From an uncultured delta proteobacterium (GTDB taxonomy: Bacteria; Desulfobacterota; Syntrophia; Syntrophales; UBA2185), in assembly GCA_963695875.1 (NCBI GenBank), contig CAVOID010000003.1, positions 96,001 through 160,000 on the forward strand: a DNA stretch of 64,000 bases, written 5' to 3'. Both the position numbers and the translations under genes were made by a program. The notes beneath the pieces were generated by a model. The model was given only the letters and a program-made list of their open reading frames with translations. It had not been told where the DNA came from and ran no database searches. Of this stretch, positions 1 to 25,850 are shown one piece after another (position 1 is the stretch's first letter; each line of letters begins with the position of its first letter).

Positions 1-953
1 ATGACGCAATAACAAAAGCCCTCGCCCAGGTTCAGGGCTCTTATAGTATTGTAATGCTGACCAAAGATAAGGTCATTGCTGCACGTGATCCGCGTGGCTT
101 CCGTCCATTATGCCTCGGAGAGCTCAACGGCGGGTGGGTCATTGCTTCCGAGACCTGCGCCTTCGACCTGATAGGCGCCAGATACCTGCGTGATGTAAAA
201 CCTGGCGAGATCCTGATAATTGACCAGAAAGGAGTAAGAAGCCTTACACCGTATCCTCAGGTGAGGTATGCACACTGTATCTTTGAGCTGATATATTTTG
301 CTCGGCCAGACAGCCAGGTCTTCGGACAAAATGTGTATATGTGCCGGAAACGACTCGGACACAGCCTGGCAAAGGAATGCAGGCCGGATGTGGATATTGT
401 TATGCCGTTTCCCGATTCCGGCACCTACGCCGCTCTGGGTTATGCGGAAGAGAGCGGCATCCCCTTTGAGATGGGTATGATCCGCAACCATTATGTGGGA
501 CGTACGTTCATTCAGCCGTCCCAGCCAATGAGGGACTTTAGTGTGAGGGTAAAATTGAACCCGGTGCGCCCTTTGCTTTCCGGGAAACGGGTCCTTATTG
601 TAGAGGATTCCATCATCAGGGGAACAACAAGCCGTAACCGTGTACGTAATCTCCGGGAGAGTGGTGTCAGGGAAATTCACATGGTTGTTAGCTGTCCGCC
701 AACACGTCATCCCTGTCCATACGGAATTGATTTTTCATCTAAAGGTGAGCTAATCGCCGCGCAGAGAGAATATGTTGATGCTGTTCGACGGTTTATAGGA
801 CTGGATAGTTTACATTACCTTTCTTTAGAAGGTATGGTCGAAGCGACAGGCATGGATTGCGACAGTTTCTGCCTTGCCTGCTATACGGGTGATTACCCCT
901 TGCCGCCTCCGGCGGATTTCGGGAAGTTCTGTTTCGAAACTGGGAAAACATAA
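1..953 (+). CDS. purF: Amidophosphoribosyltransferase, 5' end outside the window
   Basis: ARDPRGFRPL, CIFELIYFARPDS, PRPP-binding VEDSIIRGTTS, Fe-S cysteines in CPYGID and CLAC. Confidence 0.96.
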   Translation, partial: DAITKALAQVQGSYSIVMLTKDKVIAARDPRGFRPLCLGELNGGWVIASETCAFDLIGARYLRDVKPGEILIIDQKGVRSLTPYPQVRYAHCIFELIYFARPDSQVFGQNVYMCRKRLGHSLAKECRPDVDIVMPFPDSGTYAALGYAEESGIPFEMGMIRNHYVGRTFIQPSQPMRDFSVRVKLNPVRPLLSGKRVLIVEDSIIRGTTSRNRVRNLRESGVREIHMVVSCPPTRHPCPYGIDFSSKGELIAAQREYVDAVRRFIGLDSLHYLSLEGMVEATGMDCDSFCLACYTGDYPLPPPADFGKFCFETGKT

Positions 954-20400: not shown

Positions 20401-20967
20401 ATGTCGAGAATAACAATGACCTTTGATGAAATGATTATACGGTGCCTCAATTGTGGCACAAAGAACCGTATACCGAAGGACCGTCTTCATGACCGTCCGA
20501 CATGTGGCAGATGCCATGCCTATCTTGACGACATGATTATCAGGTGTCTTGCTTGCGGTACAAAAAATCGGATGCCTGAGGATCGCCTCGATCAGCAACC
20601 TGTATGCGGAAAGTGCGGAGTCCCCATTATCATCAGTGACGATAAGGGGCATACCATGGACATCACTGATGAAACATTTTCCAAGGAAGTCCTCTTGTAT
20701 TCGGGCCCCGTCCTGATGGATTCCTGGGCACCATGGTGTGCACCATGCCGCATGGTAGGACCGATTCTGGATGAGCTTGCGTCCAAATATGCAGGTGGTG
20801 TCAAGATTGTTAAACTGAATGTGGATGAAAATCCCGTTACAGCATCGAAATACAACATTCAAAGCATACCCACGATGCTTTTATTTAAGGGCGGATCGCT
20901 TGTCAATAGATTGGTCGGCGCCCTTCCTAAAGAAGAAATCGAGCGGCATCTGCTTTCGATCATGTAG
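20401..20967 (+). CDS. trxC: Thioredoxin 2-like protein with a duplicated N-terminal zinc finger
   Basis: Two copies of IIRCxxCGTKNRxPxDRLxxxPxCGxC followed by a WAPWCAPC thioredoxin domain. Confidence 0.85.
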   Translation: MSRITMTFDEMIIRCLNCGTKNRIPKDRLHDRPTCGRCHAYLDDMIIRCLACGTKNRMPEDRLDQQPVCGKCGVPIIISDDKGHTMDITDETFSKEVLLYSGPVLMDSWAPWCAPCRMVGPILDELASKYAGGVKIVKLNVDENPVTASKYNIQSIPTMLLFKGGSLVNRLVGALPKEEIERHLLSIM

Positions 20968-20990: not shown

Positions 20991-21965
20991 TTACTTAAAA
21001 AGCAAAACAAACTGCTCAAAGACGTCTCTATGGAAGTGATCAATCATCTCCTCTTTCATTATTCTCAGGGCGTTAAAGGGTTCAAGTTTTTGTCTATAAG
21101 GACGGTCGGAAGTCAGTGCGTCAAACACGTCGGCTATGGAACATATCTTTCCATATAGATGAATATCGTCTCCTTTGAGGCCGTACGGATAACCCTTACC
21201 ATCGTATCTTTCATGGTGCTGCAACACAATCTTCTTACATTCGGGAGTCAATTGCTTGGTCTCATGGAGAACTTTGTACCCCATGTTGGGGTGCTGTTTC
21301 ATCGCGTTCATTTCCTCTATCGTTAGTTTACCCGGCTTATTGATAATAGCCGTATCCACCTGTACTTTTCCCAGATCATGAAGGAAAAACCCGGCTCCCA
21401 ATTCATGCATGTCATGAGCCGTCGATTTGTTAAAAAGCGATTTTGAGAGCGAAACAGCCAGGAAACCCACATTTACGGAGTGCGTATAGGTATAAAAATC
21501 ATGGGATGTAATGCTCAACAGATATAAGGATGTTTTATCATCAGTAAGAATCAGATCGACAACTTCAGCAATACCTTTTTTTGCATCGCGAATGTTTTCA
21601 GCGGTGGGATTTTCGAGCAGGTTGCTTATCAATGTGAAGGAATGGGCCTGCACTGCTTTTGCTTTTTCCAGAGGCGGCAATTTTGCATCATGGATTGCCT
21701 CCATGAGTTCATCAGGCACTATTGTTCTGGATAATGGTCTTAAGGTCTGCTCAGATTCAGTATCAAGTTTCTCTTTTGCCTCGGAAAAAGTGCTCCTTTT
21801 TGTATCGACGATGATTTCCGCGAGGCCGTAATCATAAATCTTTTTTATCTGGTCTCTGGATTTAATTAAAAATTCATTCTTAACAAAGGGGTGGGATAGC
21901 CATGATACAGGCAAAATAACATACATGCCGATTTTTATGTTTTCCGTCTTGACAGTTCTTTGCAT
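20991..21965 (-). CDS. HD-GYP cyclic-dinucleotide phosphodiesterase with a DUF3391-like N-terminus
   Basis: YTYTHSVNV, LHDLGK, HHERYDGKGYP, ADVFDALTSDRPYR. Confidence 0.93.
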   Translation of the reverse strand: MQRTVKTENIKIGMYVILPVSWLSHPFVKNEFLIKSRDQIKKIYDYGLAEIIVDTKRSTFSEAKEKLDTESEQTLRPLSRTIVPDELMEAIHDAKLPPLEKAKAVQAHSFTLISNLLENPTAENIRDAKKGIAEVVDLILTDDKTSLYLLSITSHDFYTYTHSVNVGFLAVSLSKSLFNKSTAHDMHELGAGFFLHDLGKVQVDTAIINKPGKLTIEEMNAMKQHPNMGYKVLHETKQLTPECKKIVLQHHERYDGKGYPYGLKGDDIHLYGKICSIADVFDALTSDRPYRQKLEPFNALRIMKEEMIDHFHRDVFEQFVLLFK

Positions 21966-22041
21966 AACATTACCGATGATAATGATCTTCAAACGTGGAA
22001 GACCATCGTTCCTACTTATCATTATCGGCATTCTTATGCAT

Positions 22042-22584
22042 TTACCTGAGCATCTTTTCCCGTTTCTCCAGTTCAACCTCCAAACTTTTTAAAAGCTGAA
22101 TATCGTTCTTAAGCTGCTCTATATCTTTCTTAAGCTGATCATTTTCCTGAACTAATTTCGTCGTTTCTTCCAGCAATTGCTTGTTGTCCTTCTTTATCTG
22201 TTCATTTTCCTTAAGGATCTTGGCCTTTTCCTCCTTGGTAATCTCGATCAATTGCTTTTCAGCGTTGTACTTTTCCATACCATCAATAAGACGGATCAAT
22301 ATCTCAGAGAGTCCCCGCCACCTGCTGCGCGGATATTTTTTCAGCAATTCATCAAATGCCTCTCTGGCCTTCACATAATCTGCCGCCTTATCACGGTTCC
22401 CTAAATATGACATGCCTCTAGAAAAGATATCTGTATCGGAAGGAGATCTTTTGAACCATCCTTTTTCAAAATCCGGCGACGGATTCGTCGGAGGGGTGGG
22501 TAGTGAAGCACATGCCCCCAATAGGACAAAAAGCACACAAACTAGATATTTACAATATATTCCCCACGTCTTCCTGTTTGACAT
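22042..22584 (-). CDS. Lipoprotein with a TPR-like hairpin and long C-terminal coiled coil
   Basis: Lipobox LGAC, KAREAFDELLKKYPRSRW, heptad-rich tail ending LKSLEVELEKREKMLR. Confidence 0.8.
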   Translation of the reverse strand: MSNRKTWGIYCKYLVCVLFVLLGACASLPTPPTNPSPDFEKGWFKRSPSDTDIFSRGMSYLGNRDKAADYVKAREAFDELLKKYPRSRWRGLSEILIRLIDGMEKYNAEKQLIEITKEEKAKILKENEQIKKDNKQLLEETTKLVQENDQLKKDIEQLKNDIQLLKSLEVELEKREKMLR

Positions 22585-23884
22585 AGTTGCTTCCCGGTAG
22601 TGTCTTCGCATATTCCTTCAACTCCGCAGCTTTCTTAGCCATATCTAAAGGCCCCTGAAAATGTGTCCCATTGTCGGTAACTATAGCGATAGTCATGGTT
22701 ATGAGGGGAAACATCTGCTGGTTCCCTTGTCTGTCTTTTCCAATGATAAATCCCTTCTGCCTGTCTTTCTCACTGTAAAACCTCATACTACGGCGATCAA
22801 ACTCATCAATTATGTTCTGACATTTCTGCTCTGTCGCTCCTGGGTCAGAAACGATAATAAAATCGTCACCGCCAACATGTCCTACAAAGTCGCCCCCATT
22901 ATCCGTCGTCTGCACCTGGTTAATCAGGATATGGGCCACTTCCTTAATTACCTCGCTGCCCCATGCATAGCCATATTTATCAGCAAAGGGTTTGAAATTA
23001 TCGAGGTCTACATGACAAAGCGAAAACAGTTTTTTTTCCGAAACCCGCCTTTCAATCTCCTTCTCAATCGCCAGATTTCCCGGCAAACCGGTTAGAGGAC
23101 TTGCATCAAGGAGGAGCGTCTCCAGTACCTTGAGGCGTTCCGTCATGAAACTGAAAGCGTCTGCGAGGCTGCCGATTTCATCATTGCGGTTTATATTTAA
23201 ATTGTACTCGAACTGCCCCTCGGCAATCTGTTCTGTAGCCTCTTCGAGCTTCTTGAGAGGTCTCGAAATATTATACGTGATAAGTAAGGCTAAAGCCAAT
23301 CCCACAAACAAGCCTATCACGCTAAGTGTAATCGTCATTCTGGAAGCTTCTGTGCCCCGTATTTTAATTAGGTTCATTCTTGCATCTATATTATTTTCGG
23401 CTTTCATGCGGATTGCACGTAAAGATGTAGCTATCTCTTCAATGGTTTTTTTACACTCTGTTTCAGAAAATTTGATGGCATCCTCTACCAGATTGTCATT
23501 AACCAGGGATACCTCTTGATTAAAAAAGTCGTCATATCGGTTATGCAGTAATGACAGCTGCGACAGGGTCTTAGCGATATCGGGGATATTATTCTTTTTA
23601 AAATTCTCGAGGCCAACATTAAATTCCTGGCTTCGCGACCAGAAAAGTTCCGCTATTGACGGGTCTTTAAGAATAAGATATTTTTTTTCTGCGCTTTCCT
23701 GTGCAAGCAGTGCATCCATCATAATCTTGCTGTTATCTACGATGAAAAAATCCTGATCGATGATAACATAAGCCAATTCATTCAAATTCTGGAGGCTGAA
23801 AATCGCGTAGGCGCTTACCATGATGGTAAGTAGAGCCATAGCCAGGTAACCTGCAAGCAACTTTCGGCTTATCGTAAGTTTCAT
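22550..23884 (-). CDS. Membrane sensor with TM-periplasmic domain-TM-HAMP-GGDEF architecture (GGDDF variant)
   Basis: Two TM helices, HAMP (ISRPLKKL..DEIGSLA), SPLTGLPGN, DLDNFK, HVGGDDF. Confidence 0.92.
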   Translation of the reverse strand: MKLTISRKLLAGYLAMALLTIMVSAYAIFSLQNLNELAYVIIDQDFFIVDNSKIMMDALLAQESAEKKYLILKDPSIAELFWSRSQEFNVGLENFKKNNIPDIAKTLSQLSLLHNRYDDFFNQEVSLVNDNLVEDAIKFSETECKKTIEEIATSLRAIRMKAENNIDARMNLIKIRGTEASRMTITLSVIGLFVGLALALLITYNISRPLKKLEEATEQIAEGQFEYNLNINRNDEIGSLADAFSFMTERLKVLETLLLDASPLTGLPGNLAIEKEIERRVSEKKLFSLCHVDLDNFKPFADKYGYAWGSEVIKEVAHILINQVQTTDNGGDFVGHVGGDDFIIVSDPGATEQKCQNIIDEFDRRSMRFYSEKDRQKGFIIGKDRQGNQQMFPLITMTIAIVTDNGTHFQGPLDMAKKAAELKEYAKTLPGSNYVKQEDVGNIL

Positions 23885-24059
23885 TATTCATGCCCAATAG
23901 AATCGATTCTAATTTTTTTGTGTACCACATCCTTGCAATTTCCGCAAAGTAGAAATATAAATTTTTAGTTTACACTTTCCCGACCGAATGTTTATTGCCC
24001 CCTTTATTAAGTTTTGATATATTATAGTAAAATATCGTTACGAAGTGGAGGCTACACCG

Positions 24060-25367
24060 ATGATCTATAATGAGGAATTCGAAACATTACCCCGCGAAGT
24101 TTTGGAAACCCTGCAGTTCAAGAGATTACAACAAGTTATTCAACGTGTCTATCATACGGTTGGCTTTTACAGGAAAGCTTTTGATAAAGCCAGCGTCAAT
24201 CCGGATGATATCAAGACCCTATCTGACTTAAAGCGGCTTCCATTCACAACGAAGCAGGATTTGAGAGATAATTACCCTTTTGGTTTATTTGCGGTACCGA
24301 TGAGCAGCATTGTAAGGCTACACGCTTCCTCCGGTACAACCGGCAGAGCGATAGTCGTTGGATACACAAAACGGGATATCGATACGTGGTCCGAACTGAT
24401 GGCCAGATGTTTCGTAGCCGCAGGTTTGACCAAAAATGACATTATCCACAACGCTTACGGATACGGCCTGTTCACCGGTGGTCTCGGCGCCCATTACGGT
24501 GCTGAAAAACTGGGGGCCAGTGTCATCCCCATGTCAGGCGGCAATACAAAAAGACAGCTTATGATCTTACAGGACTTCGGCCCTACTGCCATCTGCTGTA
24601 CGCCTTCCTACGCGTTGAATCTGGCGGAACAAAGTACGGCCATGGGTATTGACATGAAATCGCTCAAGCTTCGTGTCGGTATCTTTGGTGCCGAGCCGTG
24701 GAGCGAAAAGATGCGGGACGAAATAGAAAATAAGCTGAATCTTACCGCGCTGAATATCTACGGCCTGTCGGAGATAATGGGTCCCGGAGTCGCTATGGAG
24801 TGTTTAGAAGGTCGCCATGGCATGCACGTATTTGAGGATCACTTTATTGTGGAGGTGATCCATCCGGAAACCGGCGAGTTATTGCCTTACGGAGAAGAAG
24901 GGGAGCTGGTCTTCACGACTATCACAAAGGAAGCATTCCCCCTCGTCCGGTATCGCACCAGGGACATATCACGACTGATTGCCGAACCCTGCCGCTGCGG
25001 CAGAAGTCATATCAGAATGGACCGGGTGACAGGCAGAAGTGATGATATGCTGATTATCAGGGGTATCAACGTATTCCCATCCCAGATTGAGGCTATTCTA
25101 GTCGGCATTACAGGACTCGAGCCGCACTATCAGCTCATTGTGGAAAGGGCCGGTACCTTGGACACCCTGGAGGTTCAGGTTGAAGTGAGCGAAAAGATTT
25201 TTGCAAATGCAGATGAGGTTCGCTCCCTGCAAAATTTAGAAAGGAATCTCACCAAAGACTTGAAGGACTATCTCGGTGTTTCCGCCAAGGTAAAATTAGT
25301 CGAACCCAAGTCCTTGCAACGTTTCGAAGGAAAGGCCAGCCGGGTAATCGATAAACGAAAAATATAG
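24060..25367 (+). CDS. paaK: Phenylacetate-CoA ligase family protein
   Basis: [42 protein letters not shown]. Confidence 0.92.
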
Positions 25368-25418
25368 GCGGAAATCCCAGACATTCTATTGTCGAGGAAT
25401 TCATAAGGAGGAGTACAT

Positions 25419-25850
25419 ATGAAGGTAGAACAGATATCCATATTCCTGGAGAATAAACCGGGGGCTCTTGAAAGTGTCACACGGCTATTGAAAGATAATA
25501 ATATTAACATCAGAACCCTGTCACTGGCGGATACTTCTGATTTCGGAATTCTCCGACTAATCGTCAACGATGTCAATACAACACTGAAGGTACTCAATGA
25601 AAACGGCTTGAGAGTGAGCAGGACGACCGTGGTGGCAGTGGAGGTTCCTGACCGTCCAGGTGGTCTTCACAGCATCCTTGAAGTGCTGGCGAAAAACTCC
25701 ATCAATGTTGAATATCTGTACGCATTTGTCGAAAAAAGCGGTGAAAATGCTGTGATCATCTTCCGTTTCGATTCTCCTGATAATGCCATTGATGTCCTTC
25801 TCAAAAATGGATTTACTGTTCTGCCCGGTGAGAAGCTGTATTCTTTTTAA
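25419..25850 (+). CDS. Tandem ACT-domain protein
   Basis: [32 protein letters not shown]; a common paaK neighbour. Confidence 0.88.

Follow-up and report, generated by a model that had tools for sequence, protein, structure and literature searches.

We describe a membrane-bound sensor nucleotide cyclase in which both residues that read the guanine base in canonical GGDEF enzymes are replaced. It is encoded in a 64,000-nucleotide stretch of DNA of an uncultured member of the Syntrophales (positions 96,001 to 160,000 of contig CAVOID010000003.1, GenBank assembly GCA_963695875.1; this whole stretch is called the window below). Alignment and phylogeny place the cyclase in the GGDDF lineage of GSU1937 of Geobacter sulfurreducens, as a member with a distinct and conserved variant of the nucleotide pocket. 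We document below its family membership, its architecture, a conserved catalytic core, and conserved Ala/Trp/Ser changes in the pocket. GGDEF enzymes are the most abundant synthases of cyclic dinucleotides, and nearly all of them are annotated as cyclases of cyclic diguanylate (c-di-GMP). Work on the Hypr group showed that a single residue is able to redirect the GGDEF fold to cyclic GMP-AMP (cGAMP). The loss of the base-reading Asn considered here is recurrent, occurs only where the guanine-specifying Asp is already gone, and has been fixed as a hydrophobic residue in two unrelated families. Should this reflect a further change of specificity, the Syntrophales would possess a widespread sensor, inherited vertically, that signals with a messenger other than c-di-GMP, and the rules for annotating GGDEF proteins would need a second diagnostic position. 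If, on the other hand, the Asn is merely dispensable once the Ser is present, the mechanism of Hypr enzymes would be refined.

Base-reading positions and the GGDDF subfamily

The motif stretch of the cyclase reads DLDNFKPFADKYGYAWGS and is followed by GGDDF. In the HMMER alignment to DgcR (6zxm_A, E 1.6e-8), Ala301 falls under the Asn, Tyr306 under the His, and Ser310 under the Asp of NDxxGHxxGD, and Asp293, Lys298 and Asp302 are retained. An earlier reading of the DNA from its letters alone (the sequence-only reading) had assigned Ala301 and Ser310 to the positions of PleD Asn335 and Asp344, and both the DNA and the HMMER alignment bear this out. It had also excluded indels or noise as the cause, rightly so, since GCT lies two changes away from the Asn codons AAY and AGC two changes away from the Asp codons GAY, and since the pair of Ala301 and Ser310 is found in 119 of the best 120 database homologues (69-100% domain identity), the remaining one being unmatched by the regular expression. 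All 120 have the GGDDF motif and, where named, belong to the Syntrophales or Syntrophaceae. Its further statements were likewise correct, namely that the metal-binding Asp, the Lys and the GGDDF loop are kept with no RxxD inhibitory site (I-site), residues 329-332 being NGGD, and that both altered positions are guanine readers, with Asp-to-Ser as the Hypr signature (PMC6456294).

The cyclase has Ala301/Ser310 instead of the canonical base readers Asn335/Asp344 (PleD numbering), and neither the general-base Glu nor the cross-dimer Arg of canonical cyclases is present, the motif being GGDDF and the NRR motif being replaced by N-L-A. Besides, the metal-binding Asp of DxD and the acidic GG[DE][DE]F loop are found as D293 and GGDDF. 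The combination of Ser310 and GGDDF agrees with the Hypr rule that enzymes in which residue 348 is Ser/Thr (GacA numbering) require a GGD-type motif (PMC6456294), but the sugar-face contact of Asn339 and the Glu base of GGDE[F/Y] are missing, Ala301 and an Asp at the fourth motif position standing in their places. With respect to the GSU1937 type, the transmembrane (TM)-HAMP input, the GGDDF motif, the specificity Ser and the lack of a second catalytic domain are all found, but the base-pocket residues Asn, Lys and Ser are not all kept, Ala301 and Trp308 occurring here.

The domain is more than a canonical GGDEF domain with two point changes, a point that the sequence-only reading missed. It is part of a large GGDDF subfamily, set apart from canonical GGDEF by systematic differences. 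With the domain as query against 1.84 billion representatives, 27,303 matches reached E ≤ 1e-3. The stricter limit of E ≤ 1e-30 left 621, counted as clusters at 50% identity, and the best 150 of these were used as subfamily representatives and align over the entire domain. Their consensus is DLDNFKxxNDxYG[YF]xxG[D/N/S], followed by an invariant GH[IV]GGDDF, and where canonical GGDEF has His, GRN, NRR and, as the fourth motif residue, Glu, they have Tyr/Phe, GSN, N[LI]A and Asp, respectively. The β-hairpin insert of the subfamily carries an invariant Arg (R385), which together with D293, K298, D302, H336, G338, G339, D340, D341 and K427 is invariant in 93 diverse members, and the catalytic core appears to be under selection.

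The match of the cyclase to PF00990 (49.2 bits, cut-off 23.8) covers only profile positions 5-99 of 161, and TIGR00254 also matches (52.2 bits, cut-off 37.4). An AlphaFold2 model of the domain, obtained with the 93-row alignment, has a pLDDT of 93.6 and a pTM of 0.89. Foldseek returned 137 matches at E ≤ 1e-3, the best listed of which are all GGDEF diguanylate cyclases (TMq 0.58-0.72; top match 3bre_A, E 8e-12, TMq 0.67). Considering the high confidence of the model and the nature of these best matches, the domain is confidently predicted to have the GGDEF fold. We know of no solved structure for any member of the GGDDF subfamily.

A FastTree phylogeny was computed for 163 domains, comprising the 150 representatives, 12 orthologues and the query, with the Geoalkalibacter representative P0135 included and the G. 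sulfurreducens protein P0414 left out. The HAMP-linked proteins with Tyr306 and either Ser or Asn at position 310 form one clade (support 98), in which the proteins with Ala/Val and Ser, 19 rows including the query, are nested as a clade of their own (support 96). At least 80% of these 19 rows share H291, P299, A/V301, W308, E315, V316, T398 and M415, unlike the Asp-type consensus.

GSU1937, which among characterised proteins is the nearest relative of the cyclase, is described in PMC8835794 as the only GGDEF protein of G. sulfurreducens besides GacA with the Hypr serine, with a TM-HAMP input, a GGDDF motif and many deltaproteobacterial homologues. P0414 (436 amino acids), which was reached through the Geoalkalibacter representative and then a homologue search with an orthologue from Geobacter sp., reads DLDNFKAFNDHYGYIKAS followed by GHVGGDDF, and aligns collinearly with the cyclase (35% identity, 153/438, E 1e-83). 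Because the paper knows of no Ser-type GGDEF in this species apart from GacA and GSU1937, we infer that P0414 is GSU1937 or its strain equivalent. Considering that the clade with support 98 includes P0135, and that P0414 aligns collinearly over its full length, the phylogeny and the alignment argue firmly for a common descent of the cyclase with the GSU1937-type proteins of Geobacter, two of whose orthologue records are titled 'nucleotide cyclase, HAMP and GGDEF-related domain-containing'. Judged by P0414, the two proteins share a pair of TM segments, a helical domain in the periplasm, HAMP, the linker LDASPLTxLPGN and the GGDDF domain, as well as the Ser at the Asp344 position, the Tyr in place of His, the GGDDF motif, the GSN ending and the absence of RxxD. 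On the other hand, GSU1937-type proteins have Asn at the sugar edge (115 of the 118 regex-matched Geobacteraceae-like homologues) and usually Lys two residues ahead of the Ser, whereas the clade of the cyclase has Ala/Val and Trp at these positions, plus His291 and Pro299.

The Hypr cGAMP synthases GacA (GSU1658 / Gmet_1914) and Bd0367 are Rec-GGDEF proteins (PMC6456294, PMC9140294; PDB 6d9m), with which the cyclase shares the Ser at the Watson-Crick face, the third motif residue of the GGD type, demanded by the Goldilocks rule, and the replacement of the cross-dimer Arg, a residue found in 94% of cyclases (PMC6456294). In the solved Geobacter Hypr domain, the base is read at its Watson-Crick face by Ser348 and at its sugar face by Asn339 (PMC6456294), and the structure 6d9m has the same fold as the cyclase model (Foldseek E 4.4e-10, TMq 0.63). 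GacA, which receives its input from a soluble Rec domain, has Asn339, the His, a GGDEF motif with the Glu base, and an I-site of the RxxD type. In the cyclase the input comes from a membrane sensor, the corresponding residues are Ala, Tyr and GGDDF, the I-site is missing, and a β-hairpin is added.

Conservation and coupling of positions 301 and 310

The 151 genomes sampled from the order include 110 with a match at E ≤ 1e-30 and 76 with an orthologue, defined by E ≤ 1e-90, mostly as full-length proteins and in a few cases partial or split. The best 30 orthologue loci (56-100% identity, this genome included) have Ala at position 301 in 29 cases and Val in one, Trp308 and Ser310 in all 30, and GGDDF in 29, with GGDDY in the remaining one. 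Given this conservation across the order and among the database homologues, the double change is best understood as an old, fixed and vertically inherited state, and not as decay in a single genome, and the pocket seems to have been remodelled rather than to have decayed.

The two positions do not vary freely. Among the 150 representatives, Asn301 has been lost in 17 of the 42 Ser-type members (to Ala, Val, Gly, Ser or Thr, at several separate places in the tree) and in 2 of the 32 Asn310-type members, but in none of the 76 Asp-type members, which shows that the Asn is required where guanine is read. A second, unrelated family combining a GAF domain with a GGDEY motif was met while examining relatives with riboswitches that have A at position 20 (L202:420-1481 (+), 353 amino acids, genome G079; L203:312-1370 (-), genome G106). 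Its motif is DIDNFKxVVDxxGHLLG[ST], the canonical His and the motif Glu are kept, and TEKD is found with no RxxD. In its best 120 homologues the position of the Asn is Val throughout, the Asp344 position is Ser (63) or Thr (54) in 117 and Gly in the other 3, and the GGDEY motif is present in 115. It occurs in 5 of the 151 genomes of the order and, as far as our literature search shows, seems to be uncharacterised.

Considering the HAMP-GGDDF clade together with the GAF-GGDEY family, the alignments point to a pairing of a hydrophobic sugar-edge residue with Ser/Thr in two independent lineages. The searched literature holds no description of this pairing, although the original Hypr alignments and the figure supplements on Ser/Thr enzymes, both outside the scope of the search, may show the status of the Asn. 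The pairing might be a convergent, selected signature of a product spectrum undescribed for the fold, belonging to adenine-preferring enzymes (with c-di-AMP, cyclic dimeric adenosine monophosphate, as the physiological product) or to enzymes of another messenger, with receptors other than GEMM-I, but we regard this as doubtful.

Proposed activity and its alternatives

We propose that the protein senses the periplasm, is active as a cyclase, accepts ATP and yields products like cGAMP, a reading that we consider to have about an even chance of being correct. The cyclase would be a dimeric sensor of the inner membrane, in which the periplasmic four-helix-bundle domain, probably modulated by a co-encoded periplasmic lipoprotein, signals via HAMP to the GGDEF-fold domain. 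This domain most likely would still condense two purine nucleoside triphosphates into a cyclic dinucleotide, with Ser310 permitting ATP besides GTP, as in GacA and GSU1937, and the exchange of Asn for a small hydrophobic residue would remove a hydrogen bond to guanine N2/N3 and shift the preference further towards adenine. The product would be 3',3'-cGAMP, possibly with c-di-AMP or c-di-GMP as side products, and the adjacent HD-GYP enzyme, where it is encoded as here, would degrade the signal.

Biochemical data come from GSU1937, where, according to PMC8835794, deletion of the gene reduced the cGAMP reporter signal, and a GacA-GSU1937 fusion (F4) gave cGAMP and c-di-GMP synthase signals that were abolished in a GADDF mutant. 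Several observations weigh against the proposed activity. This weakly active artificial fusion is the sole biochemical support for the subfamily, so that all 621 clusters depend on one weak activity measurement, and in the same account neither wild-type GSU1937 nor any of three further fusions was active in Escherichia coli (PMC8835794). GSU1937 keeps the Asn and the Lys that the cyclase lacks, and for this reason its activity is not automatically transferable. In the cyclase, moreover, Asp stands in place of the general-base Glu and Ser in place of the phosphate-binding GRN Arg, and the variety of residues replacing Asn301 across Ser-type lineages (Gly, Ser, Thr, Ala, Val) would also fit relaxed constraint. 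Nor did this genome yield any independent marker of cGAMP signalling. Its one GEMM-I riboswitch (81 bits, on another contig) has G at position 20, as in the c-di-GMP type, and thus the scan for a GEMM-Ib riboswitch proposed by the sequence-only reading, for which A would be expected, had a negative outcome. None of the seven HD-GYP proteins of this genome has the cGAMP-type RxxQ/N, all being Rxx[K/R]. Across the 151 genomes, of which 75 have GEMM-I matches, the presence of the orthologue and that of GEMM-I are uncorrelated (both in 28, the orthologue only in 48, the riboswitch only in 47, neither in 28).

Riboswitches with A at position 20 were found in the order seven times, in six genomes. 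This count derives from 24 top-scoring and 23 lower-scoring matches in which position 20 was typed and from a pattern scan that was the only cover for about 110 others, gave 20 matches vs 38 in a reversed control, with only the 5 that coincide with Infernal matches being counted, and misses variants that lack GACGYAAAG or have a P1 pair that is not G-C, six loci being unmatched by the regular expression and left unclassified. One genome with such a riboswitch (G148) has no Ser-type GGDEF among the seven canonical-type matches examined. GEMM-Ib was dropped as a product marker, the A-at-20 riboswitches having no usable association with the orthologue. The HD-GYP signature was found equally uninformative. 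RxxQ/N is described as the cGAMP-specific signature of HD-GYP proteins, and V-cGAP-type enzymes with RxxR also degrade cGAMP (bioRxiv 10.1101/600031), so that the absence of RxxQ/N tells little; the RPYR of the neighbouring HD-GYP protein aligns to RPYK of PmGH.

The genome (2.86 Mb, 82.6% complete) encodes a c-di-GMP network of 6 canonical GGDEF cyclases, 7 HD-GYP proteins and 9 PilZ matches, and the cyclase is its only Ser-type GGDEF. It also encodes a DAC c-di-AMP synthase domain, and a ydaO c-di-AMP riboswitch was not found in it at this completeness. Overall, neither the riboswitch nor the HD-GYP signatures provide evidence that this genome uses cGAMP signalling. The 'distinct cyclase subclass' of the sequence-only reading stands in the sense of a conserved clade, and no evidence was obtained for any particular product. 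In the one other genome of the genus, which has seven PF00990 matches (five canonical, one Asn-Asp GGDDF and the orthologue as the only Ser-type), the syntenic riboswitch (L198:1408-1495) has A at position 20, and this single G-to-A difference in one lineage is weak evidence.

If the pair of Ala/Val with Ser(Thr) marked a specificity class apart from Hypr, the enzyme might be an adenine-preferring c-di-AMP synthase, use a non-standard substrate or make a product outside the three known purine cyclic dinucleotides. A hydrophobic sugar edge would not satisfy the N2 amino group of guanine, which adenine does not have (deduced from the contacts reported in PMC6456294), and a pair of this kind has arisen in two GGDEF families that are not related, each of which keeps it strictly. 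The further conserved changes of the clade in the pocket region (H291, P299, W308), the lack of an association between orthologue and GEMM-I, and the lack of a cGAMP-type HD-GYP in the genome would agree with such a class as well. We nevertheless hold it to be unlikely, as the DAC domain already provides a c-di-AMP synthase, with no ydaO riboswitch found in the incomplete genome, the Goldilocks argument disfavours pyrimidines for the GGDEF fold (PMC6456294), and no receptor or product evidence turned up in this analysis.

A catalytically dead domain, acting as a nucleotide-binding or scaffolding sensor that, for instance, regulates the neighbouring HD-GYP enzyme or other partners, would account for the combined loss of both base readers, the canonical His, the GRN Arg, the Glu of the fourth motif position and the cross-dimer Arg. 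Inactivity is the usual case for variant motifs, and no signal came from wild-type GSU1937 in E. coli (PMC8835794). However, degenerate GGDEF receptors usually lose the metal-binding and catalytic motif, and D293, K298, D302 and GGDD are invariant here. There is, besides, no I-site for binding a dinucleotide, the HD-GYP gene is missing from 19 of the 30 loci, and motif-dependent activity has been reported in a member of the subfamily (PMC8835794), and we think it improbable that the domain is dead. An ordinary diguanylate cyclase, in which other residues read guanine and both substitutions are neutral, would be in keeping with the full c-di-GMP network, the G20 GEMM-I riboswitch, the c-di-GMP-type RPYR of the adjacent HD-GYP protein and the c-di-GMP made by the GSU1937 fusion (PMC8835794), but is very unlikely, because changing the Ser to Asp restores c-di-GMP specificity in GacA and Bd0367 (PMC6456294, PMC9140294), so that position 344/348 sets specificity in the fold, and the Asn is never lost in Asp-type members.

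Several minor observations concern the same riboswitches and domains. The GEMM-I riboswitch of this genome lies at L001:1501-1588 (-), that is G000 contig C10:148409-148496, upstream of DsbC-like and prepilin-like genes. Two GEMM-I variants in relatives (L199:1602-1685 (-), G149, and L200:2148-2224 (-), G079) carry A at position 20 and open P1 with a C-U/G-G pair, and stand upstream of one open reading frame (ORF) each, of 344 and 517 amino acids, whose hydrophobic starts look signal-peptide-like by eye. For one of these variants the top-scoring Rfam model was RF03167, though the 'GGC' set is not found at its contact nucleotides. The Rfam variants RF03167 and RF03168 in relatives were dropped, as the alignment has the canonical contact nucleotides. 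Outside the window, a weak GEMM-I-like match at L170:1501-1573 (-), G000 contig C3:359224-359296 (RF03167, 31.3 bits, the gathering score being 59), may represent either an aptamer that has diverged or a chance hit. The same genome also encodes, outside the window, an ABC-type ATPase with a C-terminal degenerate GGDEF-like domain (L009; G000 contig C3:270682-272034 (+)), which matches PF00990 over profile positions 5-104 with 28.8 bits and has no DxD or GGDEF motif.

Gene neighbourhood and feature coordinates

Table 1. Features of the cyclase gene and of its neighbours. Positions refer to the window.
Feature	Residues	Position	Strand	Basis or remark
Sensor nucleotide cyclase ORF	444 amino acids	22550..23884	-	TM, periplasmic four-helix-bundle/CHASE3-like, TM, HAMP, GGDDF domain
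TM1	about 9-32	23789..23860	-	Kyte-Doolittle, 19-residue window, score >1.6
Periplasmic sensor domain, putatively four-helix-bundle or CHASE3-like	about 33-181	23342..23788	-	weak PF12729 match
TM2	about 182-206	23267..23341	-	hydrophobicity (Kyte-Doolittle)
HAMP domain	202-252	23129..23281	-	PF00672, 51.3 bits vs cut-off 25
GGDDF-type GGDEF-fold domain	263-444	22553..23098	-	PF00990
Inserted β-hairpin within GGDDF domain	about 379-393		-	
Ala301 codon GCT	301	22982..22984	-	PleD Asn335 / GacA Asn339 position; DNA and HMMER alignment
Trp308 codon	308	22961..22963	-	Trp in 18/19 rows of the Ala/Val-Ser clade; Arg/Lys in rest of subfamily
Ser310 codon AGC	310	22955..22957	-	PleD Asp344 / GacA Ser348 position; DNA and HMMER alignment
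GGDDF motif, GGC GGT GAC GAT TTT	338-342	22859..22873	-	DNA read directly
Lipoprotein gene, lipobox LLGAC		22042..22584	-	probable start Met10 of listed ORF 22042..22611
DUF3391-HD-GYP phosphodiesterase gene		20991..21965	-	listed ORF 20991..22076, probable start Met38; RPYR motif
Phenylacetate-CoA-ligase-like gene		24045-25850	+	AMP-binding + AMP-binding_C_2
Thioredoxin-2 gene		20401-20967	+	PF21352 twice

The orthologues share the N-terminal start MKLTISRK of the cyclase. Its periplasmic domain (about 150 residues) matches PF12729 with E 9.4e-5, which is under the Pfam cut-off, and many orthologues carry precomputed annotations of PF05227 and PF12729. The gene downstream, which shares about 35 nucleotides with the end of the cyclase gene, encodes a lipoprotein. 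The Cys of its lipobox is invariant, and a TPR-like part is found in it together with a coiled coil at the C terminus. It is found downstream of the cyclase in 28 of the 30 orthologue loci and in all five loci with 5-kb flanks, compared with 11 of 30 and two of five, respectively, for the HD-GYP gene, and on this ground the conserved partner of the cyclase is the lipoprotein, not the HD-GYP gene. The sequence-only reading had considered conservation of both the substitutions and the operon in homologues, and only the former holds throughout (30/30 loci of the order), the HD-GYP gene being the part of the operon that does not recur consistently. The Geobacter-related loci differ in having no lipoprotein or HD-GYP gene directly after the cyclase, with nothing but a weak HD match, some 0.7 kb downstream, in one of them (L012).

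When the periplasmic domain was co-folded with the mature lipoprotein, the score was 0.60, compared with 0.01 for the best of three controls. The mark used was attained by 58 of 80 solved complexes and by 2 of 110 mismatched pairs, and scores no higher than 0.60 occurred in just 7 of those 80 complexes and in both mismatches that passed. The runs agree in at least 96% of the contacts, and the pLDDT of the partner is at least 81. A contact between the periplasmic domain and the lipoprotein thus receives weak support from the model.

YfiN/TpbB (DgcN) of the YfiBNR system is a periplasm-sensing TM-HAMP-GGDEF cyclase of c-di-GMP that is controlled via an outer-membrane lipoprotein. The arrangement described here resembles it by analogy, with a membrane HAMP cyclase, a periplasmic sensor and a lipoprotein gene alongside, and YfiN is both the best NCBIfam match of the cyclase and, as structure 7a7e, among its top fold matches in Foldseek. 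The NCBIfam match, however, scores 53.7 bits vs a cut-off of 325, no YfiR-like gene was seen here, and the lipoprotein, with its TPR-like part and coiled coil, is unrelated.

A scan for promoters and terminators gave nothing beyond chance, and Rfam gave no match within the window at gathering score. The synteny is kept on both sides, with the PaaK-like ligase and ACT genes divergent upstream and the thioredoxin-2 gene convergent downstream. The thioredoxin-2 protein has two N-terminal zinc-ribbon copies, and related loci have a convergent ORF of similar length at this position. The phenylacetate-CoA-ligase-like gene is followed by an ACT-pair gene, and size- and orientation-matched ORFs stand upstream of the cyclase in three of the five long-flank loci (L010, L021, L030).

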